Part shown: positions 3,564 through 32,000 of the stretch, piece after piece
Numbering within the stretch: the stretch's first letter is position 1
How the letters are laid out: each line of letters begins with the position of its first letter
NCBI GenBank assembly: GCA_013202585.1
Contig: JABMPQ010000072.1
Span: 5,729-37,728 of the forward strand
Origin: Parcubacteria group bacterium
GTDB taxonomy: Bacteria; Patescibacteriota; JABMPQ01
Direction of reading: 5' to 3'
Length of the DNA: 32,000 nucleotides
Program-made: the position numbers and the translations under genes
The notes under the pieces: generated by a model
The model's input: the letters and a program-made list of their open reading frames with translations, nothing else
What the model was told of the DNA's origin: nothing
Database searches by the model: none

Positions 3564-4031
3564 TTATTTATCCCACACCACTGGCTCATAAGGATACGGG
3601 TAAAGCTCTTTGATCGTATGCTTCTCCCACTTAGGGAAAGTCCACACGCCGTCTTTGCCAATATATTGCAAGCCAATAACCGTCGTGTCTGGACTACCGT
3701 GTTCCCAAATCAGATGCCGGCAAGTGCCGCAGGGCATGGTGCAGCGCTCTAGCCCCTCTGGCGCCGGATCAGCTACTACAACGCATTTGACTTTGGCCGC
3801 ATAGGATTCTTGCATTACCATATTGGCGATGGCGTGTCGCTCGCCGCAAACGTTGGCATGCGAGATGTTGGCCTCCAGGCAGGCTCCGTCATGAATCTGG
3901 CCGCTGTCGGATAATATGAAGGAGTATAAAGTATCGATACTGCCTTTGGCGTGGCGCATCTGGTTGTACTTTACGACTGCTTTCTTAGCATGATCGACTA
4001 GTTTTTGTTCGTCGGGGGTTAGGGTTTGCAT
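3564..4031 (-). CDS. Cytidine deaminase-like zinc deaminase (CDA fold)
   Basis: CGERHA (C/H-A-E type zinc/catalytic motif) and PCGTCRH (PCxxC) sit at the spacing of homotetrameric cytidine deaminases. There is a C-terminal extension of about 25 aa. Confidence 0.75.
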   Translation of the reverse strand: MQTLTPDEQKLVDHAKKAVVKYNQMRHAKGSIDTLYSFILSDSGQIHDGACLEANISHANVCGERHAIANMVMQESYAAKVKCVVVADPAPEGLERCTMPCGTCRHLIWEHGSPDTTVIGLQYIGKDGVWTFPKWEKHTIKELYPYPYEPVVWDK

Positions 4032-4734: not shown

Positions 4735-4780
4735 GATTATTTAATCGACTAACAGCCCGCCTAGCATAATTTGTATTATT

Positions 4781-4842
4781 TTACGATAGCTTTTTTAGTA
4801 TAATCGACTAGTTTTTGTTCGTCGGGGGTGAGGGTTGGCCAT
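4781..4842 (-). pseudogene. Remnant of the 5' end of a cytidine-deaminase gene (direct repeat of 3971-4031)
   Basis: About 52/61 nt match 3971-4031, including a 27-nt perfect core (4803-4829 = 3993-4019). The conserved frame reads PTLTPDEQKLVDYTKKAIVK then stop, against QTLTPDEQKLVDHAKKAVVKY in the intact gene. A 1-nt indel puts the ATG at 4842 out of frame. Confidence 0.6.
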
Positions 4843-4855
4843 AAACTACTTATTC

Positions 4856-5218
4856 TTAACTACTTTGCGTTTCAATATCATCATAGCTAGAAGTAGGTGT
4901 ATAATCTCCAATTTGAGTTTCTTGTTTTGTATTTAAAGTATCTTTAAATGATTTTTGGATATCTTTATGACTAGATCTTAATGTTGAAATAGTCGCTTTA
5001 TATTCAGATATAACATCTTTATAGCTTTCTCTGATCTGGTTAGAGAAAAAAGAGCCAAATGTATATAAAATACCAAATCCGATAGATATTGTTCCTAATA
5101 TTCCTGCCGGGGTATTAAAACTATTGTCAATTTTTAATAAAAAATAACCTGCAAGTAAAGTTAATAGTAATACTATTATAGATTGTAATTCGATTTTTTT
5201 TATTAGCTCTTTTAACAT
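4856..5218 (-). CDS. Small membrane protein (2 predicted TM helices, polar tail), unknown function
   Basis: 120 aa with hydrophobic stretches IIVLLLTLLAGYFLL and GILGTISIGFGILYTFGSFF. Starts 2 nt after the stop of the upstream ORF. Very AT-rich. Confidence 0.5.
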   Translation of the reverse strand: MLKELIKKIELQSIIVLLLTLLAGYFLLKIDNSFNTPAGILGTISIGFGILYTFGSFFSNQIRESYKDVISEYKATISTLRSSHKDIQKSFKDTLNTKQETQIGDYTPTSSYDDIETQSS

Positions 5219-5220
5219 AA

Positions 5221-5883
5221 TTATTTTGCTTGTATAAAGGTGTCGTTTAAAATAGACAAAAAATCATCTTTGTTTTTGAGATAATCCTTGAAACTATTCA
5301 ACATTTTTGAGATATCATCGATGTCAATTTTTCCTGTTTGAAAAATATCAACATCAAAAAGAACTCCGGGCGTTTTATTTTCATCGTTTTTTACCACCGA
5401 CTGAATCATTAAATTTATTTTAAAATTCTTTTTCGTATCTATTTCAAATTTGGCAATAGATAAAGATCCATTTTCAAATTTGGTAAGATTTTGAAAATAT
5501 TTTTTTTGGTTTTCTTGGTTGTCAAATTCAAAAATAAAATAATTCCGCCATCCGATACGATTAATTTTGTTTATATTAAGAATATCCAAAATTAACTTAC
5601 TTTCTGTGTTAAATAATTTTGCAATCATGTCCAACGAGTCTATTTCATTAAATTTCATCCAAACAATTTGAGGAGTGATTTTTAATTCATATATTTTGTC
5701 TCTTGGCGTTTTTATAACTAAGCCATTCAAATCCATGCTAAAAATAGGTGCCGCATCTTTACTGTGATACTTATTCACAATTTCACCAGCCTTATCAATA
5801 TATTGAAATCCTTCTACGGTATTTATTTGGATAAAACTTTCAGGATTTTTTAACTTATTTAGTTTTTGGATAGCATTGCTCAT
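5221..5883 (-). CDS. Hypothetical protein, possibly TIGR04255-like
   Basis: 220 aa. The NRIGWRNYF segment recalls the R-x-G-L-R-Y motif I associate with the uncharacterised TIGR04255 family (memory only). 8 nt downstream of the restriction gene. A sampled line (5401-5460) is 12/60 GC. Confidence 0.45.
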   Translation of the reverse strand: MSNAIQKLNKLKNPESFIQINTVEGFQYIDKAGEIVNKYHSKDAAPIFSMDLNGLVIKTPRDKIYELKITPQIVWMKFNEIDSLDMIAKLFNTESKLILDILNINKINRIGWRNYFIFEFDNQENQKKYFQNLTKFENGSLSIAKFEIDTKKNFKINLMIQSVVKNDENKTPGVLFDVDIFQTGKIDIDDISKMLNSFKDYLKNKDDFLSILNDTFIQAK

Positions 5884-5891
5884 AATAAAAA

Positions 5892-6686
5892 TTATATTAT
5901 AATGGTTGATTTCTCATACAACATTGGTAAACAATTCTGCCTCATGCGAAATTTTGTTCCGTGATTATGGCCAGTACGAGCATCAAAATCCACTAAGATT
6001 TTTCCTTCATCAAGAGCTTTTAAAAATCCTTCGAAGTTAAATTTCTGCAACATCATCACTTTTGTGTAATGATAGTATTCTTTCTTGCGTTTAACTTCTA
6101 CTTCTGCTTGTACATAAAAAGTATTAAGCAATTTTGTTCCAGCTTTATATTCCAAATCATCAAAACCCCAATAAGGCTGTGGATTAAGTTCACCAAGACC
6201 CGCCTTCTTTTTTACAAATCTAAGCCAATTCTTATGTTTTGGATCAACGCTTTTTGAATCAAATGAAATCAAAATTTTCTTTTCCTTGCGACTAACCACA
6301 ACTTTAAACCCACGATCACTTCTTGAATTGCCATGAATTGTTTGGCGAAAGCTCATTTCCCCTTTTGGGTATTTCTTGCCGTCTTCTTGGTGTGTCCAGC
6401 CATACAATGGAAGTAAAACTTGTGGCACAAAACGGACAGCACGTGGCGATGGCTCCATATGAAAAAGTGTTGTGAGAGATGTTGAATTTAAACATTGTGC
6501 TTTTAATTCCCACTCGGCGGCATTTGGGATCGGCAAATTATTTTCTTCAATTCCCAGTAAATCTTCTAAGGTATTACCAATTCCACCCTGATTGCCTTTT
6601 CGTGCATTTGGAATAAAACCTCTAGCAGAGATTTCTTTGAGTTTAGCTATTAAGGCCAGTTTTGTATAGATTGTCGGTTTTGCCAT
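5892..6686 (-). CDS. Type II restriction endonuclease, MvaI/BcnI family
   Basis: GNTLEDLLGIEENNLPIPNAAEWELKA...LTTLFHMEP parallels the BcnI N-terminal catalytic region (GQILERQFGVQENN...EFELKG...LTLFHKKP) as I recall it. It sits next to a beta-class MTase. Confidence 0.75.
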   Translation of the reverse strand: MAKPTIYTKLALIAKLKEISARGFIPNARKGNQGGIGNTLEDLLGIEENNLPIPNAAEWELKAQCLNSTSLTTLFHMEPSPRAVRFVPQVLLPLYGWTHQEDGKKYPKGEMSFRQTIHGNSRSDRGFKVVVSRKEKKILISFDSKSVDPKHKNWLRFVKKKAGLGELNPQPYWGFDDLEYKAGTKLLNTFYVQAEVEVKRKKEYYHYTKVMMLQKFNFEGFLKALDEGKILVDFDARTGHNHGTKFRMRQNCLPMLYEKSTIII

Positions 6687-6688
6687 AT

Positions 6689-7435
6689 TTAGAGTAGTTT
6701 AGTCTGTGATTGATGAACTTTAATTCTTTTTTTTGCTAATTCGCAATACTCCGGCGAGATATCAATTCCAATATAATCTCTTTTAGAATTTATAGCGGAA
6801 ATTGCCGTTGTGCCAGAACCTATGAATGGATCTAAAATAATCTTGGCATTTGTTGCAGAAATAATTCTATCAATTAGATTTACCGGAAAAGGAGCCGGAT
6901 GTCCATTTTTCATTTCCTGCGGTATCTCCCAAATATCACCATGGGCATTTGCCTTTTTGGCAAGTTTGAATTTCGGTTTAGCAATGAGGTAAATAACTTC
7001 GTAAGTGGGTAAAAAATAACCAGCATTAAAATTTAGTCCACCGGCACGTTTCCAAATGATAATTTGGCGAACCGGAAAATCACTGACAATATCTTGACGA
7101 TCTTGCAATAAGCCACCTTGGACACGCCATTTGTGATTGTAAAAAATAGCTCCATCTTCGGAGATTAGCCGCATCATCTCAATTAAGCAATCTCTTTGCC
7201 ATTTCACATATTCATCATGCGGTATATTATCGTCATAGTGTGAATAACCTTTTTGCAAAGCGGCATTTGCCCATTTTCCACCTCGTCCGTCTTTCATTCC
7301 GTTACCGGTAGAATTTTTAAGATTATATGGCGGTGAAGTAATAGCCAAATCAACCGATTCATTCGGTATTTTCTTCATGACATCAATTGCGTCACCGCAA
7401 ATGATTTTATTCGTAAATTTAGTAATGTTTTGCAT
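6689..7435 (-). CDS. DNA methyltransferase, N4-cytosine/N6-adenine beta class (N6_N4_Mtase)
   Basis: Motif IV SPPY (ITSPPYNL) is near the N-terminus and motif I DPFIGSGTT near the C-terminus. The IV-to-I order indicates the beta class. 2-nt gap to the REase gene. Confidence 0.9.
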   Translation of the reverse strand: MQNITKFTNKIICGDAIDVMKKIPNESVDLAITSPPYNLKNSTGNGMKDGRGGKWANAALQKGYSHYDDNIPHDEYVKWQRDCLIEMMRLISEDGAIFYNHKWRVQGGLLQDRQDIVSDFPVRQIIIWKRAGGLNFNAGYFLPTYEVIYLIAKPKFKLAKKANAHGDIWEIPQEMKNGHPAPFPVNLIDRIISATNAKIILDPFIGSGTTAISAINSKRDYIGIDISPEYCELAKKRIKVHQSQTKLL

Positions 7436-10230: not shown

Positions 10231-10443
10231 TTATTTTGCTTTATTAAAATAATCTAATACTTCTTTGGCCTCAGCAGCTGATATTTTCTCCGTTGCTAGA
10301 TTAGCTTGGGTCAGTAACCAGTCACCCCGCTTAGCCTTGGGGACTAATTTCAAGCTCACTACTAGTGTCTTGTCATTTTGCTCCACCTCGGCTTGCTCGT
10401 CGGGTAGTAGCTTCTTAACTTGTACTGGTATTGCGAAACACAT
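10231..10443 (-). CDS. hypC: HypC/HupF hydrogenase maturation chaperone
   Basis: 70 aa. N-terminal MCFAIP is the essential Cys2 MC(L/F)xIP motif, and there is a GDWLL segment. Confidence 0.8.
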   Translation of the reverse strand: MCFAIPVQVKKLLPDEQAEVEQNDKTLVVSLKLVPKAKRGDWLLTQANLATEKISAAEAKEVLDYFNKAK

Positions 10444-10459: not shown

Positions 10460-10569
10460 GAGGGCCAGTATTATTCTTTTTTTGGCTGCGGAACTCGTCG
10501 CCCTCCCGGTAAGACCGGGATGACTCCTCAGACACCCGCAGGCTGCAAAAAAGAACAACACTAACCCTC
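10460..10569 (-). repeat. ERIC/MITE-like imperfect palindromic repeat, copy A (110 nt)
   Basis: 17-bp basal arms plus a T7/A6 extension enclose the GC-rich core ...CTGCGGGTGTCTGAG-hairpin-CGAGTTCCGCAG (minus-strand reading). Lies between the hydG stop and the hypC start. The strand given is the one on which arm mismatches become G:U. Confidence 0.7.
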
Positions 10570-11437: not shown

Positions 11438-11574
11438 AGGGATAATGTATTGTTCTTTTTCACAGCCTGCCCGCAATGCCTCGCGGCTAGCGATGGCAGG
11501 CGGGCTGCGGGTGTCTGAGCCCCGCCTCAGCGGGGCGAGTTCCGCAGCAAGAAAAAGAGTAATGCATTATCCCT
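11438..11574 (+). repeat. ERIC/MITE-like imperfect palindromic repeat, copy B (137 nt, with extra nested hairpin)
   Basis: The 23-bp basal stem (11438-11460 with 11552-11574) has 3 G:U pairs on the plus strand. It has the same core ends as copies A and C. Lies between the hydB stop and the hydG start. Confidence 0.7.
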
Positions 11575-12606: not shown

Positions 12607-12712
12607 TAAATATGATTGGGATGAAATAAAATTGGCTAATAGACTAGACAATATTGATATAAGAGATAAAATGTAAATCTAATATTCACCCTTCCCTTAA
12701 ATCAACTATATT

Positions 12713-12721
12713 TGCTATAAT
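12713..12721 (+). promoter_or_regulatory. Putative extended -10 promoter element (TGCTATAAT) for the plus-strand gene at 12780
   Basis: TGCTATAAT at 12713-12721, about 58 nt upstream of the ATG. AGGAGG RBS at 12764-12769. Confidence 0.4.
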
Positions 12722-12779
12722 TCAGTATTCTACATTCAGAAAGCACAAATGAAAACTACAAACAGGAGGTAGCATTATT

Positions 12780-13250
12780 ATGTCCGCTACAGAGATAAAA
12801 GTGTTAGTGCAGTTCAGCTTTGGAATTGGTGGGGGCGAGTCCGCTTTTGCTGGAAGCTTTTCAGCAGGAGAGGACTGTGTTATCAGTGAATTCCATGGCC
12901 AAGGATATGCCTGGGTTCTGATAGAGAACAAGGGAGCATTCTTCCTTATCGTCATCGACTTTGGTCATTCCGATGATTGCGGTGGGAACTCTGTTAATTT
13001 CTTCCCTGACGCCAAAAAAGGACTCAGGATCCAACTGGAAAGAGTGCGGAGAGACATAGCCCTAGCTCGAAGAGATGGTGTGTACGATCTTCCTGAGCCT
13101 GCTCAAAGACTACGAGAAGATATACAAGAGGGACGGCGAGATGATCCTCTTCCCTCTGATCCTCCGTTTAAAGTGGCCATGGAGGAGGAGGAGGAAAGGA
13201 GGCTACTGGAAGCACTCAAACTGGCACGAGAAAGCATAGATCCAAAGTAG
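12780..13250 (+). CDS. Hypothetical protein (156 aa), Gly-rich N-terminus and acidic/Arg-rich C-terminus
   Basis: Perfect AGGAGG lies 10 nt upstream of the ATG, and a hairpin plus T6 terminator follows. I recognise no family. Confidence 0.55.
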   Translation: MSATEIKVLVQFSFGIGGGESAFAGSFSAGEDCVISEFHGQGYAWVLIENKGAFFLIVIDFGHSDDCGGNSVNFFPDAKKGLRIQLERVRRDIALARRDGVYDLPEPAQRLREDIQEGRRDDPLPSDPPFKVAMEEEEERRLLEALKLARESIDPK

Positions 13251-13268
13251 CTGCTCTTTAGCCGAAAG

Positions 13269-13292
13269 GACTTGTTGTTACAGGTCTTTTTT
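13269..13292 (+). terminator. Intrinsic terminator after the 12780-13250 gene
   Basis: GACTTGT-TGTT-ACAGGTC forms a 7-bp stem (one G:U) followed by TTTTTT. Confidence 0.5.
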
Positions 13293-13302
13293 ATTTGGTA
13301 TT

Positions 13303-13325
13303 AAAAAAGAGTTACTTGCGTAACC
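13303..13325 (-). terminator. Intrinsic terminator after the 13345-13998 gene
   Basis: The minus strand reads GGTTAC-GCAA-GTAACT (GNRA loop) followed by CTTTTTT. Confidence 0.45.
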
Positions 13326-13344
13326 CTATAGACACAATCTCCTT

Positions 13345-13998
13345 CTACCAAATAGCACCACGTAATTGATCACCTATATCCCTTGGTATAGATGCGGTGA
13401 ATTTATGCGATAGCTTGTAGGCATCTGTCCAGATGTCTATTTCCTCGTCTGAACTGCGGGCTAGCTTCAATATCAATTCATCCTTGTCTCGGACGTCTTG
13501 ACACGGCATTTTTCCCAGACTACGTTCAGCGAAGAACCGTAGATCACTACCAATCGACTCCAAAATATGGTTAATCGATTTTATCTTGCGTTCCTCACTT
13601 GTTATGTGCACCGTGAACTTTATGTCCCGCTGAACAGTCGTTACCTCGACAAGGCCACCAACTTCTTCCATTACCGTCCCCGGTCTTTCCTGGCATTCCT
13701 CTTCATGTGTCACGGTACTAATACTTATCGGTTCAGAAAGTGCTACTTCACCTAACATAAGTAGCATTCCCGCGAATTCGACATCTCTGCCTATAGTTCC
13801 CGTCGTAATCTCATGACCTACCGATCTAGTCAACCCCCGGGACATGTCCAGCATTTTGAGGACATTTTTCACTGCATCAATACTAACCGAAACCAGCTCT
13901 GTCGATTTGCCCATTTTATAAATTTCCAACAAGTAGGCGAAAATCGGCACGAGATTGCAAGGTACTTTCCGTTTGACCATAGCTTTCTTCCGAGCCAT
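13345..13998 (-). CDS. Hypothetical protein (217 aa)
   Basis: AGGAGG (reverse complement of 14005-14010) lies 6 nt upstream of the ATG. I recognise no family. GC slightly above the local background. Confidence 0.55.
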   Translation of the reverse strand: MARKKAMVKRKVPCNLVPIFAYLLEIYKMGKSTELVSVSIDAVKNVLKMLDMSRGLTRSVGHEITTGTIGRDVEFAGMLLMLGEVALSEPISISTVTHEEECQERPGTVMEEVGGLVEVTTVQRDIKFTVHITSEERKIKSINHILESIGSDLRFFAERSLGKMPCQDVRDKDELILKLARSSDEEIDIWTDAYKLSHKFTASIPRDIGDQLRGAIW

Positions 13999-14041
13999 GA
14001 TTTTCCTCCTTGACGTACGTTTTTCTATCTAAACTCGTTTA

Positions 14042-14794: not shown

Positions 14795-15958
14795 TCAGTC
14801 TACACTATTTTGGTAAAGACTCTTAAAAATCCGCAAGCTTTCTAAATATTCTTCATTATCTTCTACGCCATCGCGGTGGAAAGTAAAATATTTTAGTATT
14901 TTCTTGGGCGGTAACTCATGAGTGACATAGCCATAATCGCGGATAGCGGTGTTCTTGATCAGATTTTCCATCGTTTTTTTATAGAAAAGTAAATTATCAC
15001 TGCTTATCCTCGTTAACGGCAAATGCTCATCAGTGCCATTATTAAAACCTTCACGGAAAAATTTAACAAGATCTGTCCAAAAAAACAGATAAAGCAATAT
15101 CTTTTTTATATCTCGACCGCTGCGCTGCGGAATATCTTTCATAAAATGACTGCGGTTATAGTGCACGTGGCAGTGAGCAATATTATCTCCCATCTTATCA
15201 ATAAACTCATTTATGTGTTCAAAGCGTCTAGTTTCTTCTTCAGAAAAGCCATGCTTTTTCAGGAATTCTCTATTTCTCACTTGAGTATTAAGATGACCCC
15301 AATCAAAAGTGATTTTAAGATTTGGATGCTTTAGCCTTTTAAAGACATACTGAAAATCGTGGTGATCCGTCATGGTGCAAGACTGCTTATTTCCCACCAC
15401 GTGCGGCATATTTTCTAAAGTTAAAGTAACGTTACGACGCGCAGCGTAATCTAGAGCCGAACTCATATTACTCATAATGTTGTCCAAAGCTCGCTCTTTA
15501 CTCACTCCTCGCCAAGCTGTTCCGGGATGAAAAACTATCAGCGGATTGTCGCCCTGGCTTAGTTCGGCCGCAATATCAATGTGCGACTTCAAAGCCTTAG
15601 TAATATAGTGCGAATCGTGGGAGAGGTTAAAATAGTACCCCTTGAGAGACTTAGGACAGGTTTCAAAACAACCATGGAAAGTGTACATCGGAAGCTTTTG
15701 TTTTTTAATCGCTTCAACTCGTTTCCACTTAGGGTTCCAGCGCCGATCGAAAAAGCCCCACAATGTCATTTCTAGCCCATCGTAGCCCCTTTTACCCTCA
15801 ATAATATCTCGATTAGGCTTAGATATCTTCTCGTCCCAACTCTTAAAAACATTCAGAAACGGCAATTCTGCTCGCAACAAATCAACCGCGATATGGGCAA
15901 TCGTGGGCATAATGACAATGTCTTCGATCAGGTGTTTGATTTCTTTATTTTTCGCCAT
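14795..15958 (-). CDS. Xylose-isomerase-like TIM-barrel (sugar phosphate isomerase/epimerase / AP-endonuclease 2 superfamily) protein
   Basis: VFHPG, LTLENM and FDWGHLN fit the metal-binding strand-end pattern of this superfamily. Specific function unknown. Confidence 0.45.
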   Translation of the reverse strand: MAKNKEIKHLIEDIVIMPTIAHIAVDLLRAELPFLNVFKSWDEKISKPNRDIIEGKRGYDGLEMTLWGFFDRRWNPKWKRVEAIKKQKLPMYTFHGCFETCPKSLKGYYFNLSHDSHYITKALKSHIDIAAELSQGDNPLIVFHPGTAWRGVSKERALDNIMSNMSSALDYAARRNVTLTLENMPHVVGNKQSCTMTDHHDFQYVFKRLKHPNLKITFDWGHLNTQVRNREFLKKHGFSEEETRRFEHINEFIDKMGDNIAHCHVHYNRSHFMKDIPQRSGRDIKKILLYLFFWTDLVKFFREGFNNGTDEHLPLTRISSDNLLFYKKTMENLIKNTAIRDYGYVTHELPPKKILKYFTFHRDGVEDNEEYLESLRIFKSLYQNSVD

Positions 15959-15997
15959 ACTAGATTAAGTTATAACAAAATAACTAATTAGGCAAAT

Positions 15998-16040
15998 AAA
16001 AAACACTAATTATACACGCTAAGTTCGCGCCGAATTAGTG
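15998..16040 (-). terminator. Intrinsic terminator at the end of the ABC/GldG-like operon
   Basis: CACTAATT (16004-16011) and AATTAGTG (16033-16040) form an 8-bp inverted repeat, followed on the minus strand by T6 (16003-15998). Confidence 0.45.
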
Positions 16041-21977: not shown

Positions 21978-22085
21978 TTTAGTGTTTTAATTTGTAAAAA
22001 TAGTTATCAAAATTAACTATCTTGTTCCTTACTATAACAATCCCCTCTTTTTTCAGCAAGCGCGTTTTGGCAGTGCCAATATGCA

Positions 22086-22200
22086 AACAGAGGACTAGTG
22101 TTTGCTTTTTCGCAGCTGTGGGTGTTTGAGGAGTTCTCCCGGTCTTACCGGGAGGGCGACGAGTTCCGCAGCCAGAAAAAATAAATACTAGTCCTCTGTT
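22086..22200 (+). repeat. ERIC/MITE-like imperfect palindromic repeat, copy C (115 nt)
   Basis: Perfect 14-bp arms AACAGAGGACTAGT (22086-22099) and ACTAGTCCTCTGTT (22187-22200). The core is about 90% identical to the reverse complement of copy A. The 3' arm overlaps the nnrD stop codon. Confidence 0.7.
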
Positions 22201-23075
22201 ATCATCTTTAGTAATTTTGGCAACTCCCCAATCACATCTGAGGCAATCACTGATCGCTTGCCTAGCTTGGCGGCTGCTTTATCGCCAGCTAACCCGTGTA
22301 GATAGACAGCGGTGCTAGCTGACTCGAGAGGCTGTTTAATGTTCTGCGCCCAGAGAGTGGCTAGAATGCCAGTGAGCACGTCACCGGTGCCAGCTGTGGC
22401 TAGAGCGCGACTGCCAGATTCATTTATTACTGTTCGCCCGTCTGGTCCGGCAATTATTGTCTCCGGCCCTTTCAAAAGTATATTGACCAGCCACTTCTGA
22501 ACATAATTTTGCGCGATCTTAGCGCGATCTTCTTTTATATTCTCAACGCTGAGACCGGAAAGTCTAGCCATTTCCCCTTCATGCGGAGTGATAATCGTTT
22601 CATTTTTGCGCTGCGGCAGTAATTTATCGACCTGACCAGCCAAAGCGTTTAAGCCATCAGCGTCTAGTACTAGTGGCTTATCTAGCTCCACTATTAGCTC
22701 GCGGATTAATTTTTGCGTCTCTTTGTTTTGCGACAATCCTGGACCGATAGCTACCACGTCAAACTCAGCTGATTTTTCTATAAGAATCTCCAAAGCCTCG
22801 TAGCTCAAAGTACCTTCGTCAGTCGCCGGACACGGAATCGTCATTACTTCGGGCAATAAATCCGCGTAAATTTCCGTCAAAGTTTCCGGAAATGCCAGCG
22901 TGACAATCCCTGCTCCCGCCCGCAAAGCAGCTCGGCAAGTTAAAACGGCCGCGCCCGTCATGCCGCGCGAACCAGCCACGACCAAAACCTGCCCGCATTG
23001 TTTTTTATGCACGCTGCCCGGTCGCGGAGCGAGAATCTCCGGAAAAATAATTTTGTTTTGGGTTATTGGTTTCAT
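22188..23075 (-). CDS. nnrD: ADP/ATP-dependent NAD(P)H-hydrate dehydratase (YjeF C-terminal domain)
   Basis: Ribokinase-like fold signature with GTGDVLTG near the C-terminus. The length of 295 aa is typical. Confidence 0.85.
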   Translation of the reverse strand: MKPITQNKIIFPEILAPRPGSVHKKQCGQVLVVAGSRGMTGAAVLTCRAALRAGAGIVTLAFPETLTEIYADLLPEVMTIPCPATDEGTLSYEALEILIEKSAEFDVVAIGPGLSQNKETQKLIRELIVELDKPLVLDADGLNALAGQVDKLLPQRKNETIITPHEGEMARLSGLSVENIKEDRAKIAQNYVQKWLVNILLKGPETIIAGPDGRTVINESGSRALATAGTGDVLTGILATLWAQNIKQPLESASTAVYLHGLAGDKAAAKLGKRSVIASDVIGELPKLLKMITED

Positions 23076-24819: not shown

Positions 24820-24910
24820 GAGCTGATCGTGATTTTTAGCGATTTTCGCACCTACAAAATTCAATAAGTATAGATACAGAAACGGAAACAGGCCCGCAAG
24901 GGGAAGGAAA

Positions 24911-26095
24911 ATGAACATGGCACTGGAAGAAATTGCAGAACTAGTTGAGCTCGTTACGCGCATCCGGCGGCGGATGCACATGTGTCCCGCGCTACGATGG
25001 CAGGAAGACGAGACCCTGCAGTACCTCGAGGGACTATTCCTCGAAGTCTGCAACGGAAAGGACATCTTTCGCATCCGCCGCAAGAGGGGTGGAACATTGG
25101 TGGACATCAAGTTCGACTCGAACTTCTCCTGGGACGCCTGGCGGGCTGAAGTGGATGCCCTGCCGATTCAGGAGAACACCGGCCTGGAATTCGCCTCCAC
25201 CGTCGAGGGAGTGTCCCAGGCCTGCGGCCACGACTTCAGTCCAGCGATGGCGATGGGTGCCCTGTGGGCGCTCAGCCGGGACATTGTCCGGCCCACGCAT
25301 AACATCCGACTAATGCTGCAGCGAGCCGAAGAAAACCCAGGCGCGCCACCAGAGCCCCGTTCAGGTGGAGACATTCTGGTCAATGATGACGGTGCGCTAG
25401 AAGGGATGGATCGAGTGCATATTTTGCATATCCTTTCGACTCTCCCCCTCGGCGAATTCCACTCTCGGCAGGGGCCGCTCATGGGCTGTTCCGACCGGAT
25501 GGGCATCAAGTTCACTGCCACTGGCGGTCACGTCATGGAGCCGCATATCGGATCCAACGCCATGCAGATGCTCCAGGCAACAATGAACTACCTCGACAGC
25601 TTCGCCGCCCGCCACACCAGCCCCTTTGAGCCGCTGGTGATTGAGCCAACCAGCGCTGACTTTGGCGACGGCCAAAGCACCAGCAACATCCGTCCGGCAG
25701 ATGGCAGTGCCTGGTGGGCAGTGCGGCACATGCTGGATAGAGAGGGACAGACTCAGCTTCAGGTCGACCTCCGGGTGGGGATTGAGCAGGCACTGAGTAT
25801 ATTCCAGGAATCCGGAGTGGAAATCAACATGGTTGATGGTCACCCGACGACCACCAACTCCGATTTCCCTGAGGTCGCAGAAGTGCTGAAGAGCGCTGGT
25901 CTCGCTGTCGTGGAAGGCAAGCCGGAGCTAGGCGGCGATGACGCTGCCTACTATCTGCAAAAGTGCAGAGGCTCCTACTGGTTTCTGGGCGCTGGCGGTC
26001 CCGACTACGCCGGTCACCACACGGCCAAATTCGACCCCAACGAGAAAGCTCTGATCCACGGCGTTCAGTTCTGGCTGGCCATGGCCTCCCGCTAA
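24911..26095 (+). CDS. M20D-family amidohydrolase (N-acyl-amino-acid amidohydrolase / hippuricase-like)
   Basis: RRRMHMCPALRW, EVDALPIQE, QACGHD, QRAEE, GGDDAAYY and HHTAKFD track the conserved M20D motifs (RRxxHxxPEL, DMDALP, HACGHD, QPAEE, GxEDF, HHPxF). The purine-rich GGAAGGA lies just upstream, and the ATG at 24917 is an alternative start. Confidence 0.85.
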   Translation: MNMALEEIAELVELVTRIRRRMHMCPALRWQEDETLQYLEGLFLEVCNGKDIFRIRRKRGGTLVDIKFDSNFSWDAWRAEVDALPIQENTGLEFASTVEGVSQACGHDFSPAMAMGALWALSRDIVRPTHNIRLMLQRAEENPGAPPEPRSGGDILVNDDGALEGMDRVHILHILSTLPLGEFHSRQGPLMGCSDRMGIKFTATGGHVMEPHIGSNAMQMLQATMNYLDSFAARHTSPFEPLVIEPTSADFGDGQSTSNIRPADGSAWWAVRHMLDREGQTQLQVDLRVGIEQALSIFQESGVEINMVDGHPTTTNSDFPEVAEVLKSAGLAVVEGKPELGGDDAAYYLQKCRGSYWFLGAGGPDYAGHHTAKFDPNEKALIHGVQFWLAMASR

Positions 26096-26128
26096 AACCT
26101 ACCCGCACCTACCTATTGAAAACACAAA

Positions 26129-26163: not shown

Positions 26164-26338
26164 ATTTGCGAAGCGAATGAGAGAAAAGCAAAATCTTTTT
26201 GCTTTTCCGAATGAGCAAGCAAACAAGAGACGAAGTCTCTTATTTGCGAAGTCCTGCCTGCCGGCAGGGAGTGAGATCCCGATCTGATCGGGACGAACGA
26301 ACAAGCAAACAAGGGGCGAAGCCCCTTATTTGCGCAAG
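26164..26338. repeat. Array of at least five hairpins, including two 29-nt paralogous hairpins (26219-26247, 26305-26333) and a thrice-repeated TTATTTGCG(A/C)AAG motif
   Basis: Hairpins at 26183-26207 (11 bp), 26219-26247, about 26255-26268 (CCTGCCGGCAGG), about 26277-26293 (TCCCGATC/GATCGGGA) and 26305-26333. See findings. Confidence 0.6.
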
Positions 26339-27349: not shown

Positions 27350-27420
27350 ACTGCCAATTTTGCCTAAAACTTGTTTTGGTTGCAAAATCGAGTACCCCGA
27401 TGAGCGTAGCGACATCGGGA
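27350..27420. repeat. Conserved 71-nt intergenic element, copy 1
   Basis: 64/71 identical to 30271-30341. Contains two hairpins (ATTTTGC...GCAAAAT and CCCGATG-N10-CATCGGG). Begins immediately after a swivel-protein stop codon. Confidence 0.7.
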
Positions 27421-28722
27421 CTAGTTTATTTTCTTCACTATTCCTTGTTTAGCATCCACTTCTACCCGATCACCATCTTTCAGCGCCTGGGTCGCGATTT
27501 TCGTTCCAATCACACAGGGTTTTTTCATCTCCCGAGCAAGAATAGCAGCGTGGCAGGTAATCCCGCCCTCATCAGTAACAAAAGCGGCTGCCTTATTCAT
27601 GGCTACGATATAGGCAGGAATGGTCATGGGCGTGACTAATATGTCTCCTTCTGTCACCTTATCAACTTCGCGCGGATTATTTACCACTTTTACCGTCCCC
27701 TTAGCCTTCCCTGGCCAGGCTATATTTCCCTTAATTTCATTTGTCCCGGTCTCTTGCCTTGAAATAATTACTGGATGATCAAATACAGCGATGTCATTAT
27801 AGTACTTTATAATAGCTGACCGCGTTGGGTCTCGCTTAGTAATAATTTTTCCACTCTGAATATCGCTAGGTATGCAGTCTCGCACAGATTCAACCCCCAA
27901 TGCCTCTGCTGCTCGCTCAAATATCGGCTGAGCCAGGTAATATAACTCATATAGAGCATCGGTGCGAAAAGTGCGCAAGAACACTAATTCTTGCAACTCA
28001 GCCACTAAATCACGTAGCGATTGCGGTATATCCGGCTGTTTTATTTTTTCGGCTGGCTTGGCTGACACTTCTTGTTGAATTTTTTTCATCTCCGCCCGAC
28101 TAAAGCCAGGGGCAAAACCTCCTTCAATCCGGGTCTTCATCCAGGCATATTCTTGGTGTAGTTCTTCTAAGCTTACTCCCTGGCGAATATCATCTTCCAT
28201 CAAATTATGCGCGGTTTTTTTCAAGGGCTTGCTGATATCACCAATAAATTTTTCCGCCTCTGCTTCAACAACGAACTCTTTAGCTTTCTCGTTGGCAATA
28301 GGGATGTAATATTCTTCACAGCCATGGGCGACCCAAATGTAAACATTAAAAGGCGAAATCAAATTAACCACCTGTCGATACAATTCTACTGGATTTGTTT
28401 GTTTATCAGCTATTAGCTGAGGAATTTTTGCTTTAATTTCTCGGTATGAATCTTCGCATTGTTTAGTGAGAACAAAAATGTCAGTTTTTTGTAGATATCT
28501 TCCGGCTTCCTCCGCTGCCGCCTTAATCATTTCTGGACAACGGTACCAAGTATAAGAGTCGTAAGCAACGATGGGATACTCGCCATCAATACCTTGAGTT
28601 TTAAAAGCTGCTCGGGTGGCATTCTCGAACATCATATAGGTAACCAAAAAAGCGTAGGGACGGTGAAGCCAGACTTCCCAGTCCATGGCTGTTATTTTCT
28701 CTTTTACTTGTTCTTTATTCAT
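27421..28722 (-). CDS. PEP-utilising-enzyme mobile (swivel phosphohistidine) domain protein with an uncharacterised helical N-terminal region (paralogue P1)
   Basis: C-terminal [22 protein letters not shown] fits the PEP-utilisers phosphohistidine signature. The protein ends about 25 aa after this domain. The start overlaps the P2 stop (ATGA). Confidence 0.8.
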   Translation of the reverse strand: MNKEQVKEKITAMDWEVWLHRPYAFLVTYMMFENATRAAFKTQGIDGEYPIVAYDSYTWYRCPEMIKAAAEEAGRYLQKTDIFVLTKQCEDSYREIKAKIPQLIADKQTNPVELYRQVVNLISPFNVYIWVAHGCEEYYIPIANEKAKEFVVEAEAEKFIGDISKPLKKTAHNLMEDDIRQGVSLEELHQEYAWMKTRIEGGFAPGFSRAEMKKIQQEVSAKPAEKIKQPDIPQSLRDLVAELQELVFLRTFRTDALYELYYLAQPIFERAAEALGVESVRDCIPSDIQSGKIITKRDPTRSAIIKYYNDIAVFDHPVIISRQETGTNEIKGNIAWPGKAKGTVKVVNNPREVDKVTEGDILVTPMTIPAYIVAMNKAAAFVTDEGGITCHAAILAREMKKPCVIGTKIATQALKDGDRVEVDAKQGIVKKIN

Positions 28723-30248
28723 ATCTTCTTAGCTATGCCTTTACTGGCATCCACCTCTACTCTATCGCCAGTTTGGAAAGCTTTGGTGGCAATTTTGGTG
28801 CCAATAATACAGGGTATTTTTAGCTCGCGTGATACTACGGCGGCATGGCTGGTGATCCCGCCTTGTTCCGTCACGATGGCGGCCGCTTTTTTCATGACGG
28901 GGACAAAATCAGGAGTAGTTTGGTTAGCGACTAAAATCTCACCTACTTGAAATTTTATCATATCCGCTTTTGACTTTATTACTCGGACAATCCCGGTAGC
29001 TTTACCCAAAGAAGCCCCGACACCACGCAACTCCTTAACATCCTCAGATTGCTGCTGCTCTAGATGAACAAAATACTTGTTCGCAGCAGTGCCAGCGACA
29101 ACATAGTAACCAGCCGGCGTAACAGCGTAGAATATTTGGTCTTTCCGCGCCGCAATTTTCTTTAGCAAGTCCCGATCGCCTGACAACACTTCGCACACTT
29201 CTTCGAACACCAAAAATGTCATGTCTTTAGTCGTAATTCCTGCTCGACCACCAATCTCCGCTAAAAATTTCTCAAAATGAGACATCCCCACATAGACTCC
29301 ACTTTTACGCACGTCCTTCCATTCGGTAAACAGGTCAGAGATTTGTAAAACATTACGGTGAAACTCATCAAGAGGTAGATTAGCCAAGACCTGCTGTCGT
29401 TTTTCCTCATAATCTTTTATTTCTCGTTGCTTCTTCTGATATCGGTCAGCTAAATTTTTACCCTCACTTACCAGCTGTTTCAATCTGTCATAAAAATCGG
29501 CCAGGCTAATAATTTCCGCCTGATAGTAATTATTTGCCATCCAATAATATTTCTGGCGGTGTTTTTGTAAAGATTTGTATAATTTAGGCGATTCTTTTTC
29601 TAAAACTTTGCGATCCGGCAATTTACTACCATAGTGCTCACTGAATTTTACTGCCAAGCCCAATAAATCAAATTCTTCTTCGATCGTGAAAGATAAAAAT
29701 CCCGGCGAGAGCAAAATCCGCAAGATTTCATCACGATCGCCAGTAACTTCCATTTCGGCCAACGCCTCCCGAAACATTTCCTCCAACCAATCCGTCTCGC
29801 CCGTTGACATAAAAGAATCAGCTAAATAAGCGGCGGCGCCCGCACCTAAATATAGTTGATAGAATTCCTTAAAGTCTCGGATCAACTCTTCGTCAGTCAA
29901 TTTACCTAGATTTTTATCCAACAGTTCCTCTGAACAATTTATGTACTCAGCCCAGTCAGCCTGCCAAGCGCGGTAACGTTGCATGACGTGCTCTGTTCCT
30001 TGCCGAGCTTCTTCCACCACCCAGTCCTTAACTTTCACCAAGCTTTCTTGATCCAGAAACCACTGCGCTTGCTCGCCTTTAATAAAACAAAAACAAAATT
30101 TATAAGGGATGGGGATTACCTGGGCGAACCGAAAAACCTCCGTTTCCGAAGAAGCAAACAAAGTAAAAACTTTGCTTTCAAATGACTTGTTGTATTGCTC
30201 CCCCACTTTAGCCACTACATCTAGGGGAAACTTGGTCAGTTTTTTCAT
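28719..30248 (-). CDS. PEP-utilising-enzyme mobile domain protein, paralogue P2
   Basis: C-terminal GGITSHAAVVSRELKIPCIIGT. The N-terminal region shares QKYYWM and EWKDVRK blocks with P3. Confidence 0.8.
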   Translation of the reverse strand: MKKLTKFPLDVVAKVGEQYNKSFESKVFTLFASSETEVFRFAQVIPIPYKFCFCFIKGEQAQWFLDQESLVKVKDWVVEEARQGTEHVMQRYRAWQADWAEYINCSEELLDKNLGKLTDEELIRDFKEFYQLYLGAGAAAYLADSFMSTGETDWLEEMFREALAEMEVTGDRDEILRILLSPGFLSFTIEEEFDLLGLAVKFSEHYGSKLPDRKVLEKESPKLYKSLQKHRQKYYWMANNYYQAEIISLADFYDRLKQLVSEGKNLADRYQKKQREIKDYEEKRQQVLANLPLDEFHRNVLQISDLFTEWKDVRKSGVYVGMSHFEKFLAEIGGRAGITTKDMTFLVFEEVCEVLSGDRDLLKKIAARKDQIFYAVTPAGYYVVAGTAANKYFVHLEQQQSEDVKELRGVGASLGKATGIVRVIKSKADMIKFQVGEILVANQTTPDFVPVMKKAAAIVTEQGGITSHAAVVSRELKIPCIIGTKIATKAFQTGDRVEVDASKGIAKKI

Positions 30249-30270
30249 ATTGATCAGCTATAATTTTTTT

Positions 30271-30341
30271 ACTGCCAATTTTGCCCAAAACTTGTTTTGG
30301 CTGCAAAATTGAGCATCCCGATGAGCAAAGCGACATCGGGA
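30271..30341. repeat. Conserved 71-nt intergenic element, copy 2
   Basis: 64/71 identical to 27350-27420. Lies between the P3 stop (30342) and the P2 start (30248). Confidence 0.7.
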
Positions 30342-31781
30342 TTAACCCATTTTCTTTACTGATCCTTTGTCAGCGTCTATCTTTATTCTATCACCATCCT
30401 TCAAGGTAGCGGTAGCCGTTTGCACTCCTACTAGGCAAGGAATCTTCAGCTCACGCGCTACGATCGCCGCATGACAAGTCAAACCCCCTTCATCAGTCAC
30501 AATCCCACCTGCTTTTTTCATTATCGGTAAATAATCCGGCCGGGTCATAACTGCTACAATAATATCGCCCTCTTTTACCTTAGAAAAATCATCTCTAGTC
30601 AAAACAACTCGCACTTCTCCTTGTACCACCCCTGAGCTGGCGCACATTCCCTTAATGTCATCCTGACGCAAAGATTCTGCAAGCAAATTAGTTAATTTTT
30701 CCGCCTCCTGATCGTAAAAACGATACCACTCACCCATTTTAGGTCCATAGCCATAAACTATGCCAGCTTGTCTCTTCTTCAGCTCTTTGGCAATACCAGC
30801 CGGCAACTGCCAGCCCTTAATATCCCATAAATTAAGGAAATGGAGTAACTCCAGCTCGATCTTATTAACCTTACTAAGCCTCTCCAAAATTTGATACAGA
30901 TAATGATTAATAATACAGATGCTTTTTTTGCGCACGTCTCGCCACTCAGTCATTTGCGAGAATAAATAAAAAACATTTTGCAATGACTGACTGATATTTT
31001 TAGACTTTTGCAATGCTACTTTTTGCTCGGCGACATGCTGCAAATCTTTATTAATTTTATCTACTTCGCCAACACGCTGATCGATTTTTTTAACATCCTG
31101 CTCGATTTTTTCTCTAAAATCGTCAATGGTTAGTCTAGCCACTTCGTGCCAATTACTTCCTAGCCAAAAATATTTCTGCTGATGATTTGCTAGCTGCTTG
31201 GCAGTATCCTTACCAGCTTTATAATCCTGAGCTATCTGAACTCGGGCAATAAGTTCCTGCTGTTGCTCCGTTGGACTATCGGGACTGATCAAAATGGCGA
31301 TTTCTTCGCTAGATAGTTCTACTTTTTCCTTAGCGACCAATTCAGTCAATATTTTATCACCCTCGGGATCAAATACTTCAATTACCAAAGCTACAATCCA
31401 GCTATCCAAAGACAATTTAGTAATTTCTTTTAGGTTGTCGGTAAGCTCCTGATCACTCCAATCCGCTACTGGCCGACTGAATTTGGCCTGCAATAAATCC
31501 ATCATCTGGCCATCAAGAGCCTGCCACTGCTTGATCTTGTCATCTATGTAATCTCTACTCTTCTCAGCTTTTTTTATGATTTCTCTAGCCTTTTTCGTTT
31601 CTTCGTCTCTATTGAAATAGGCAATATTCTCCCGACCTATTTGGGTAGTAATGCAATTATCGTATCCTAATAGTTTATAGATTGATTTATAGGGCCGAAA
31701 ACTATAGAAAAAACTGAACTCACCCCCTTGGCGATACCAGTTTTTTGCTTTAATATTTTCGGCTAACTCTGCGTATTTCAT
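30342..31781 (-). CDS. PEP-utilising-enzyme mobile domain protein, paralogue P3
   Basis: C-terminal [22 protein letters not shown]. Carries QKYFWL and EWRDVRK blocks. The start overlaps the P4 stop (ATGA). Confidence 0.8.
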
Positions 31782-32000
31782 TTTAATTCTCTTACTACTC
31801 CATGATTGGCCCGCACCTCGATCTGCATCCCGTCCCGAAAGACTTTGGTCGCTTTTTTAGTGCCAATGACGGTTGGAATATTAAGCTCGCGCGCCACAAT
31901 CGCGGCGTGGCAAGTAATCCCACCCTCGTCAGTCACAATGGCGGCCGCTTTTTTCAAAGCGGGCATAAATTCCGGCCTAGTCATCGAGGCAACGATAATA
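31778..32000 (-). CDS. PEP-utilising-enzyme mobile domain protein, paralogue P4 (C-terminal fragment; gene continues beyond the window)
   Basis: [22 protein letters not shown]. The frame stays open upstream of the track Met (…[11 protein letters not shown], compare [12 protein letters not shown] in P3). Confidence 0.75.

Follow-up and report, generated by a model that had tools for sequence, protein, structure and literature searches.

What kind of element are the three long palindromes in a 32,000-nucleotide (nt) stretch of a Parcubacteria group bacterium (contig JABMPQ010000072.1; the whole stretch is called the window here), and does one strand of their hairpins act as RNA or as DNA? A preliminary description placed copies A, B and C at 10460-10569, 11438-11574 and 22086-22200, likened them to ERIC sequences and to miniature inverted-repeat transposable elements (MITEs), and took a strand bias in their stem mismatches as a sign of selection as RNA. 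The elements have a covarying structure, are strand-specific, occur in circularly permuted forms and have long been conserved at orthologous loci. A, B and C are a local variant of a cross-phylum superfamily rather than a local family. As to the mechanism of action, we infer, tentatively and with less than even confidence, that the element is a single-stranded DNA (ssDNA) recognition hairpin for a trans-acting, strand-specific DNA-processing protein, and lean to this reading over a structured RNA.

Three hairpins with a common core

Alignment and a listing of inverted repeats placed the three copies, with their arms and core, where they had been described, with A inverted relative to B and C, and support a genuine palindromic repeat family. 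The core has two halves, X (CTGCGGGTGTCTGAG) and Y (CGAGTTCCGCAGC), and the strand that reads X first and Y after it is referred to as the XY strand. Both halves recur far above chance, as CGAGTTCCGCAGC has three exact occurrences in the window versus 0.35 expected and CTGCGGGTGTCTGAG three occurrences at no more than two mismatches versus 0.34 expected. The features of the copies are as follows, with helices P1 to P3 and the covariance model R1 described in the next section.

10460-10569, minus strand: copy A, whole hairpin; XY (the strand that folds well) is minus and in sense orientation to the genes on either side; R1 match at 10461-10567
10527-10541, minus strand: core X strand of copy A (CTGCGGGTGTCTGAG), comprising the 5′ half of helix P2, the UGUCU bulge and GA; from an exact match and the fold
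10498-10526, minus strand: variable apical helix P3 of copy A (GAGTCATCCCGGTCTTACCGGGAGGGCGA region); from alignment and the fold
10485-10497, minus strand: core Y strand of copy A (CGAGTTCCGCAGC); exact match
11438-11574, plus strand: copy B, whole hairpin; the XY strand is the plus strand, antisense to the operon, with an AsrA-like Fe-S gene on one side and an AsrB-like FAD/NAD gene on the other
11467-11504, plus strand: extra 38-nt hairpin of copy B, directly 5′ of the X strand and yielding a three-way junction
11505-11548, plus strand: core of copy B, with X at 11505-11519, P3 at 11520-11535 and Y at 11536-11548
22078-22208, plus strand: copy C, whole hairpin with outer arms; R1 match at 22091-22196
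22116-22172, plus strand: core of copy C, with X at 22116-22130 (CTGTGGGTGTTTGAG), then P3, and Y at 22160-22172

The palindrome of copy C thus reaches beyond 22086-22200, to 22078-22208, and its 3′ arm contains the stop codon (22188-22190) of an NAD(P)H-hydrate dehydratase gene. Each window copy forms one long hairpin (fold z-scores of -7.8 to -9.3), and in RNA folding the XY strand is in each case more stable than its complement (-59.9 versus -41.2 kcal/mol in A, -81.8 versus -72.0 in B and -66.8 versus -50.7 in C). Pairing the arms by hand reproduced the mismatch counts of the preliminary description (G:U in 4/4, 3/3 and 2/3 cases), with four G:U and no A:C in A, three G:U and no A:C in B, and two G:U and one C.A in C. 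According to the list of open reading frames (ORFs), the window genes are almost all on the minus strand, so that the XY strand is indeed sense at A and antisense at B and C. A covariance scan of the window with the full model found no further convincing copy. An AT-rich 90-nt intergenic hairpin at 15930-16020 scores 16.6 bits (E 0.024) with the element model and lacks the core; it probably represents either a palindrome of other origin or a copy that has decayed completely.

Structure of the core

The shared module consists of a helix, a 5-nt bulge UGUYU, a tandem G.A and a variable capped helix. Read along the XY strand, the consensus has a variable basal stem P1, a U-run, G[C/A], an A.A-type mismatch and then helix P2, in which GCG(A)GGAC pairs with GUUCCGC and which contains a bulged A and an invariant G.U; there follow the UGUYU bulge, a tandem G.A/A.G, the variable helix P3 and a return strand with GC, a 2-nt bulge and an A-run. 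The X strand reads ..G[C/A]AGCGAGGAC-UGUYU-GAGC in most lineages and CUGCGGG-UGUYU-GAG in the window type, and the Y strand GCGA-GUUCCGCAGC. The window type deviates in X only, with CUGCGGG instead of GCGAGGAC, which shifts the P2 register against the same Y strand, while in Ralstonia P2 differs in sequence, the apex UGUCUGAGC-GNA-GCGAGUU is kept and extra unpaired U's are present. The span of P3 varies from a GC-GUA-GC mini-hairpin to more than 100 nt, often with a C-GNA-G triloop as the cap; the minimal P3 is GCGAAGC or GCGTAGC, and the minimal element is UUUUUGAAGCGAGGACUGUUUGAGCGUAGCGAGUUCCGCAGCGAGAAAA with stems. Protein coding can be dismissed, because the P3 and P1 lengths change out of frame (X-to-Y spacings of 21, 22, 25, 26, 28 and so on).

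In a structural alignment of 28 sequences, from which the window-type copies were left out, 85.7% of the cells pair, compared to 64% in shuffles and 40-49% with slid partners. Both sides change in 25 of the 35 pairs, the P2 core is invariant, and the junction pair is C-G, U-A or U.G in eight sequences each. The covariance model R1 built from this alignment matches copy C on the plus strand with 38.5 bits (E 7e-9), copy A on the minus strand with 35.6 bits (E 5e-8; 10.2 bits on the plus strand) and the core of copy B at 11504-11550 with 21.2 bits (E 1e-3), whereas the opposite strands of the window copies score 10-14 bits (13.8 at most). A covariance model, proposed as a check in the preliminary description, thus recovers all three copies on the predicted strand only, even when built from outside sequences. 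Among the fetched loci R1 matches 90 copies, including one on the megaplasmid of Ralstonia pseudosolanacearum GMI1000, where the element is at about 756.9-757.3 kb (L119).

The architecture brings up the chief alternative, in which the XY strand would be read as a structured RNA on a mobile hairpin: a protein-binding module similar to a kink-turn, or else a small self-cleaving ribozyme of a new type. We regard this as possible and as the less probable of the two leading readings. The core resembles the kink-turn layout of a C-stem closed by C-G, a bulge, G.A/A.G and an NC-stem, and the positions of G.A/A.G and the closing C-G pair are invariant. The invariant G.U in P2, the covariation of the junction pair and the pairing kept in the window and Ralstonia types of P2 despite their different sequences would also be in line with an RNA. 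More broadly, kink-turn, hammerhead and twister RNAs offer a likeness in the layout of helix, bulge, tandem sheared G.A and helix, in the conserved core and in the free peripheral helices. On the other hand, the bulge has 5 nt instead of the canonical 3, the Ralstonia form has its additional unpaired U's, and the strand is mostly untranscribed relative to its neighbours. Rfam, which the preliminary description had suggested searching, gave no ribozyme or other family: in Rfam 15 neither the window elements nor 12 + 12 other loci had a match at the gathering threshold, and relaxed E-values added generic miRNA-hairpin noise only. Resemblances to the hammerhead, the hairpin ribozyme, signal recognition particle (SRP) RNA, the tRNA anticodon and dif were judged by eye and dropped as partial or coincidental.

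A superfamily across phyla

In total, more than 200 copies were recovered from Patescibacteria, Saganbacteria, FCPU426, Gamma- and Betaproteobacteria, Coriobacteriaceae, one Bacteroidaceae bin and prophages. A scan of one genome per GTDB species, with the Y strand and its A-run as the query, gave at least 115 loci, about 70 of which have both core strands, in at least 35 genomes from many phyla. Patescibacterial hosts are Doudna-, Uhr-, Parcu-, Magasanik-, Portnoy- and Saccharibacteria, and the others include Saganbacteria, FCPU426, several uncultured Gammaproteobacteria, one Pseudobdellovibrionaceae metagenome-assembled genome (MAG), gut Coriobacteriaceae and one Bacteroidaceae bin, with copies also in Ralstonia and Comamonas. 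Some genomes are multi-copy, with at least 10 loci in one Doudnabacteria MAG. A metagenome scan with the window-type X strand gave at least 120 loci, and most of these listed matches are the GC-rich composite described below. Among the loci listed from the genome scan, the nearest kin of the window are two Patescibacteria MAGs, JAHJQX01 and JBDRPV01.

The element was found in only three of 2.9 million viral contigs, and a phage vector was therefore rejected; one of the three loci flanks a DUF2971 gene beside a prophage repressor. A Blast search with a 341-nt query against phages and plasmids gave no match. No description of the element was found in the literature by sequence strings, by spurious-ORF peptides or by topic, and the superfamily is apparently undescribed and unnamed.

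The likeness to ERIC noted in the preliminary description is not one of sequence, as the core query has no match in 5,426 E. coli genomes. The size of about 100-150 nt, the intergenic or gene-end site, the occasional supply of stop codons and the long hairpin are shared with ERIC, Correia, RPE, RUP and BOX elements, but those are lineage-restricted and conserved at the termini, whereas here the interior is conserved and crosses phyla. The same reversal disfavours a conventional MITE moved by a DDE transposase via terminal inverted repeats, with an asymmetry due to master copies or mutation bias, which is the least probable of the readings considered. The arms do act like terminal inverted repeats, arm sequences are common to within-genome families, and one family has a possible 3-nt A/T-rich target duplication; no target-site duplication is visible at the window copies. 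However, the termini differ between genomes, and the 2.5 kb around the copies yielded no recurrent transposase and no parent insertion sequence (IS); the similarity to an IS5 transposase at locus L120, like a Mesorhizobium match at locus L121, is at chance level (E 3).

Contigs of the Bacteroidaceae bin terminate at the element. At loci L245 and L246, from two other samples and with an identical AsrB-like protein, the contigs stop about 50-110 nt past the stop codon of the gene, around copy A, which suggests that the repeat there breaks short-read assemblies. The practical consequences are metagenome assemblies that break at the element, stop codons contributed by it and, in GC-rich genomes, spurious ORFs.

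Permuted copies, inserts and inverted pairs

Ten copies are circularly permuted and read Y, a capped P1 and X inside an outer stem, which is the counterpart of P3 and covaries between the copies. They occur in Coriobacteriaceae, the Bacteroidaceae bin and the Pseudobdellovibrionaceae MAG. Their P1 is a GC stem between an A-run and a T-run, which makes it a bidirectional terminator-like hairpin; the GC hairpin with a U-run that marks an intrinsic terminator is found only in the capped P1 of these copies. With this strong terminator between Y and X, a terminated transcript could never hold both strands, yet the core and the outer stem are kept complementary, which is one reason to lean towards ssDNA and speaks against a structured RNA. 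In favour of the latter, permuted copies together with multi-copy, cross-phylum and prophage-borne spread are a signature of the hammerhead and twister class, although the natural permutation, the many copies and the presence in prophages are only an indirect resemblance to small ribozymes. The gene for the SRP protein, ffh (MFDSLSDKLQ...), directly follows one permuted copy (L034 5100-5290); an Rfam search detected no similarity to SRP RNA at this copy, and the adjacency is probably a coincidence.

An extra hairpin just 5′ of X is found in window copy B, in three Doudnabacteria copies and at L100, and the GC-rich family has an analogous insert, hairpin H1. The GC-rich composite is about 300 nt long. 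Besides that extra hairpin it has two direct repeats (GCCGAGNAGCGCAGG) and further mini-hairpins, with a CUUUCUUUUG...CAAAAGAAAG module at its end, and a Comamonas plasmid carries it as a whole. In Comamonas odontotermitis WLL the element is on a plasmid at about 199.1-199.4 kb. The terminal module alone occurs in at least 40 places per replicon in Paraburkholderia and is also present in Burkholderia, Ralstonia, Pasteurella and Aeromonas. Large composite palindromes bounded by a CUUUCUUUUGGCGA...AAAGAAAG module were seen at L119 1147-1680, L118 60-400, L171 7960-8600 and L243 3630-4060, in Betaproteobacteria and in a Pasteurella record without the core; this bounding module, which on its own is present in at least 40 places per replicon in Paraburkholderia, seems to be a separate, unnamed high-copy repeat.

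Inverted pairs are frequent, and all those seen are head-to-head (window A/B, L102, L108, L115, L116, L118, L119, L168, L206, L208 and L171), none tail-to-tail. They enclose housekeeping genes or a DUF2971 gene. At L208 432-2072, in one GC-rich lineage, a head-to-head pair directly precedes a transposase gene of the IS481/rve type, the start of which is about 60 nt from one of the units; this is the only transposase adjacency seen and is anecdotal.

Strand asymmetry

G:U counts taken from minimum-free-energy folds are biased to G:U on both strands, and wobble counts were therefore taken from an arm alignment that scores G:T and A:C alike and is strand-symmetric. In 65 of 82 copies the better fold is that of the XY strand, with a mean advantage of 6.3 kcal/mol. 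On this strand the variable P1 of the genome set has 73 G:T versus 24 A:C, and P3 25 versus 9. When identical events are collapsed per genome, the AT-rich lineages retain 88 G:T versus 26 A:C (binomial p about 5e-9), with G:T ahead in 25 genome groups, A:C in 4 and a tie in 4 (p 1e-4). The GC-rich sub-family shows no bias, with 19 versus 30 in total (11 versus 13 in P3 and 8 versus 17 in the extra hairpin). The asymmetry described for A, B and C, nine of ten transition mismatches, thus persists in the AT-rich lineages, but at about 3:1 rather than 9:1, and is gone in the GC-rich sub-family. The selection as RNA that had been concluded from it does not follow, since G:T wobble on one strand suits an ssDNA hairpin equally well; the excess of 88 to 26 counts in favour of a structured RNA, too.

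Copies whose XY strand runs in the sense of the neighbouring genes, A, L018 and L108 among them, likewise have G:T without A:C, and the orthologue of A in JAHJQX01, which is inverted relative to its flanks, has four G:T and no A:C on its own XY strand, so that the bias tracks the orientation of the core and not the gene strand. Given the established mutation asymmetries, deamination of the sense or lagging-template strand, linked to transcription or replication, would give the opposite sign in antisense copies. This inference stands against a mutation bias acting on a MITE, as does the survival of the bias after per-genome collapsing, in 25 of the 29 informative genome groups.

The loops are asymmetric as well. 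In the pooled copies of both scans, the apical loops of P3 are GNA in 29 cases and TNC in one, and GCGNAGC occurs 28 times on the XY strand and not once on its complement. Triloops make up 46% of the P3 loops and half of them are C-GNA-G, while GNNA is found in 3 of 32 P3 tetraloops. The sequence GCGNAGC is a classic, extraordinarily stable DNA mini-hairpin that occurs at ssDNA priming sites and in the N4 hairpin promoters (PMC13037366). The predominance of C-GNA-G and GCGNAGC over GNRA or UNCG loops is a further reason to lean towards ssDNA, and the lack of enrichment of GNRA and UNCG tetraloops, with GNA triloops enriched instead, counts against a structured RNA.

Finally, the orientation relative to genes is uneven. 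Among the co-directional contexts of the AT-rich set, 33 have the XY strand antisense to both neighbours and 7 have it sense (about 28 versus 6 genome groups). In GC-rich contigs genes were called with a GC1/GC2/GC3 filter, as spurious ORFs spoil an ORF-based orientation, and there genes point at the 3′ outer end of the units in 53 versus 38 cases, so that incoming transcription would again read the complement. If the element were a structured RNA, sense insertions in operons would be harmful through cleavage or block of the mRNA, and antisense copies would be expected to accumulate, as they do. Nevertheless, XY is not the mRNA strand in most copies, the intergenic gaps are tight with no conserved promoter, and at the window copies no promoter is conserved or predicted. 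In most cases the folding strand differs from that of the mRNA, and a promoter has neither room nor conservation, both of which again make us lean to ssDNA.

The copies occupy short spacers that separate co-directional genes, or the 3′ ends of genes, copy C supplies a stop codon, and the permuted copies and the outer modules of the GC-rich composite look like bidirectional terminators. All this would be expected of an ordinary intercistronic mRNA hairpin or terminator with a REP/BIME-like effect, active in either transcribed orientation, which would stabilise the upstream mRNA or attenuate read-through and have its asymmetry as a by-product. Such a reading is improbable, as it leaves unexplained why a core of about 35 nt and its fixed unpaired bases are conserved across phyla, and as the G:U and GNA signals track the core rather than the direction of transcription. 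Moreover, the window copies are not terminator-like on either strand; no terminator-like site was found on either strand at A or B, where the T-run sits 5′ of the core.

Persistence at orthologous loci

A contig of a relative (L086) is syntenic with 9.4-18.3 kb of the window and has both A and B. The stretch of B with the core and the A-run (11504-11557) is 52/54 identical (96%) to the orthologue, while the flanking genes are 78-81% identical. The two differences in the B core make up one compensatory pair in P3, the B arms differ by a matched 1-nt indel on both arms, and the orthologue is without the extra 38-nt hairpin. The copy at the A locus of the relative is flipped and partly degenerate, with P2 kept via compensatory changes. 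In the Doudnabacteria and Saganbacteria families, too, the arm differences are compensated substitutions. Since the orthologous loci are occupied and the changes are compensatory, the window elements are old residents maintained as hairpins rather than a recent burst, and the same pattern points to purifying selection at orthologous sites rather than decay. The preliminary description raised a mobile palindrome as an option, and recent mobility of the window copies is accordingly doubtful, with A and B at the same loci in a genome that is about 76-81% identical.

Two further observations concern the syntenic region. The segment at 12613-14038 has about 1.4 kb in the window versus about 0.46 kb in L086 and holds a plus-strand ORF (12780-13250, 156 amino acids) without a Pfam match. 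Just downstream of copy A, a 71-amino-acid frame on the minus strand (10231-10443) encodes a protein 94% identical to that of the relative, a conserved small protein that a length-only ORF listing would miss.

A proposed folded DNA strand and its possible reader

Under the reading that we tentatively favour, the element would act as one folded DNA strand, bound by a trans-acting, strand-specific DNA-processing protein in the way that REP/REPIN hairpins serve the RAYT nucleases and attC bottom strands serve the integron integrases. Copies would persist mainly where the strong-folding strand is the strand least often single-stranded, namely the template strand of the genes, which would be the leading-strand template. 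Chromosomal integrons place attC bottom strands on the leading-strand template, and the parallel between this orientation and the position of the strong-folding strand on the template and leading-template strand is another reason for leaning towards ssDNA.

Several points weigh against such a protein-bound DNA hairpin. The layout of helix, bulge, tandem G.A and helix, the C-G closing pair and the invariant G.U resemble an RNA kink-turn, and circular permutation with a conserved core is typical of small ribozymes. G.T in DNA is a poorer pair than G.U in RNA, so that the 3:1 bias fits RNA at least equally, and the bias is missing in the GC-rich family. GNA triloops also occur in RNA and, as C-GAA-G, in the terminator-like hairpins at 26208-26334 of the window, and are thus not unique to the element. 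ssDNA elements of the IS200/IS605 type are biased oppositely, with the active strand on the lagging-strand template, and the gene strand is a mere proxy for the direction of replication in MAG contigs. Finally, clustering of the neighbours within 2.5 kb of the copies revealed no recurrent family of nucleases, recombinases, reverse transcriptases or transposases, and no partner protein was found next to the elements.

One close likeness is to REP/REPIN-RAYT, which also comprise high-copy intergenic imperfect palindromes, a strand-specific hairpin with conserved unpaired bases, long persistence, frequent inverted pairs and a majority of copies without an adjoining transposase. REPs, however, are 20-40 nt long, species-specific and preceded by a GTAG-type tetranucleotide, whereas here a core of about 35 nt crosses phyla and the stems vary; a GTAG-like tetranucleotide was absent on inspection of more than 80 copies, where the 5′ arm ends vary, and no RAYT (Y1) gene was found within 2.5 kb of the copies or in the window. 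With attC the element would share recognition of a folded strand, as proposed here, and it shares extrahelical bases, a highly variable terminal structure, little conservation of stem sequence and a folding strand antisense to genes and on the leading-strand template (with gene strand as the proxy). Unlike attC, it forms no co-oriented cassette arrays and is flanked by conserved housekeeping operons; the boxes RYYYAAC and GTTRRRY were absent by inspection, there is no integrase in the window, A and B are mutually inverted, and their flanking operon is syntenic in the relative.

The d(GCGNAGC) mini-hairpins of the phage G4 origin, ssiA and the N4 promoters resemble the minimal P3 (GCGAAGC or GCGTAGC), with flanking Y-GA-R tandem mismatches and adjoining CTG trinucleotides. 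On the single strands of phages or plasmids such a signal is a single site, in contrast to the dispersed chromosomal repeats here, and the present repeats, unlike ssDNA priming sites, are mostly on the strand without need of priming. In TIGR-Tas loci, an array of tandem units with variable spacers lies next to an effector gene (PMC12045711). Guide arrays of the TIGR or CRISPR type were rejected, the copies being dispersed singles or inverted pairs with conserved loops.

Interspersed palindromes are, to our knowledge, usually lineage-specific, and their biology is not known apart from REP-RAYT and a few MITEs. The core described here, about 35 nt long and with unpaired bases that are fixed, is found hundreds of times in hosts that range from ultra-small Patescibacteria to Ralstonia and Comamonas; it accepts circular permutation and inserted helices and has three independent strand-specific signatures. 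The cross-phylum core, its permutability, the selection and the strand signatures together imply a conserved, unnamed reader, either a protein or a catalytic fold. A more far-reaching proposal, which we hold to be rather doubtful, is that the core is the recognition or catalytic centre of an undescribed nucleic-acid system common to Patescibacteria, Proteobacteria, Actinobacteria and others, be it a new class of natural, permutable ribozyme or protein-binding RNA on mobile hairpins or a folded ssDNA substrate of a widespread recombinase or nuclease. In the ssDNA-substrate version it would join REP-RAYT and attC-IntI as a third system of its kind. The interest of the finding exceeds what was first thought, in that the superfamily is very large, apparently unnamed and includes culturable bacteria; its reach into culturable Ralstonia and Comamonas makes both the question of RNA versus ssDNA and the partner directly testable.

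Genes and other features of the window

The window looks like a Patescibacteria-type genome. Its genes include Fic, Bro-N, an MvaI/BcnI restriction-modification pair, hydrogenase-like, DUF6390, EamA, AsrA/AsrB-like, DsbA and ABC-transporter genes, with no transposase, reverse transcriptase or HUH gene in the window. A very AT-rich segment at 5000-7435 (0.27 GC at 5-6 kb) adjoins the MvaI/BcnI-type restriction endonuclease and an N4/N6 DNA methylase, has Fic and Bro-N upstream and resembles a defence or mobile island. A direct repeat of 63 nt, with 87% identity between 3967-4029 and 4777-4839, copies the 5′ end of the ORF at 3564-4031 to the region upstream of the methyltransferase gene.

A GC-rich island at 24900-26100 (0.60 GC versus about 0.42 elsewhere) has a Peptidase_M20 gene on the plus strand, against nearly all genes, and may have been acquired horizontally. 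Two 41-nt direct repeats at 26208-26248 and 26294-26334, 86 nt apart between convergent genes, are both hairpins with a C-GAA-G triloop and compensated stems (AGAGAC/GTCTCT versus GGGGC/GCCCC), and are probably tandem bidirectional terminators. The region at 27350-32000 contains four tandem paralogous genes with the repeat families D1 and D2, and the two of them that were scanned both end in a PEP-utilizers mobile domain.

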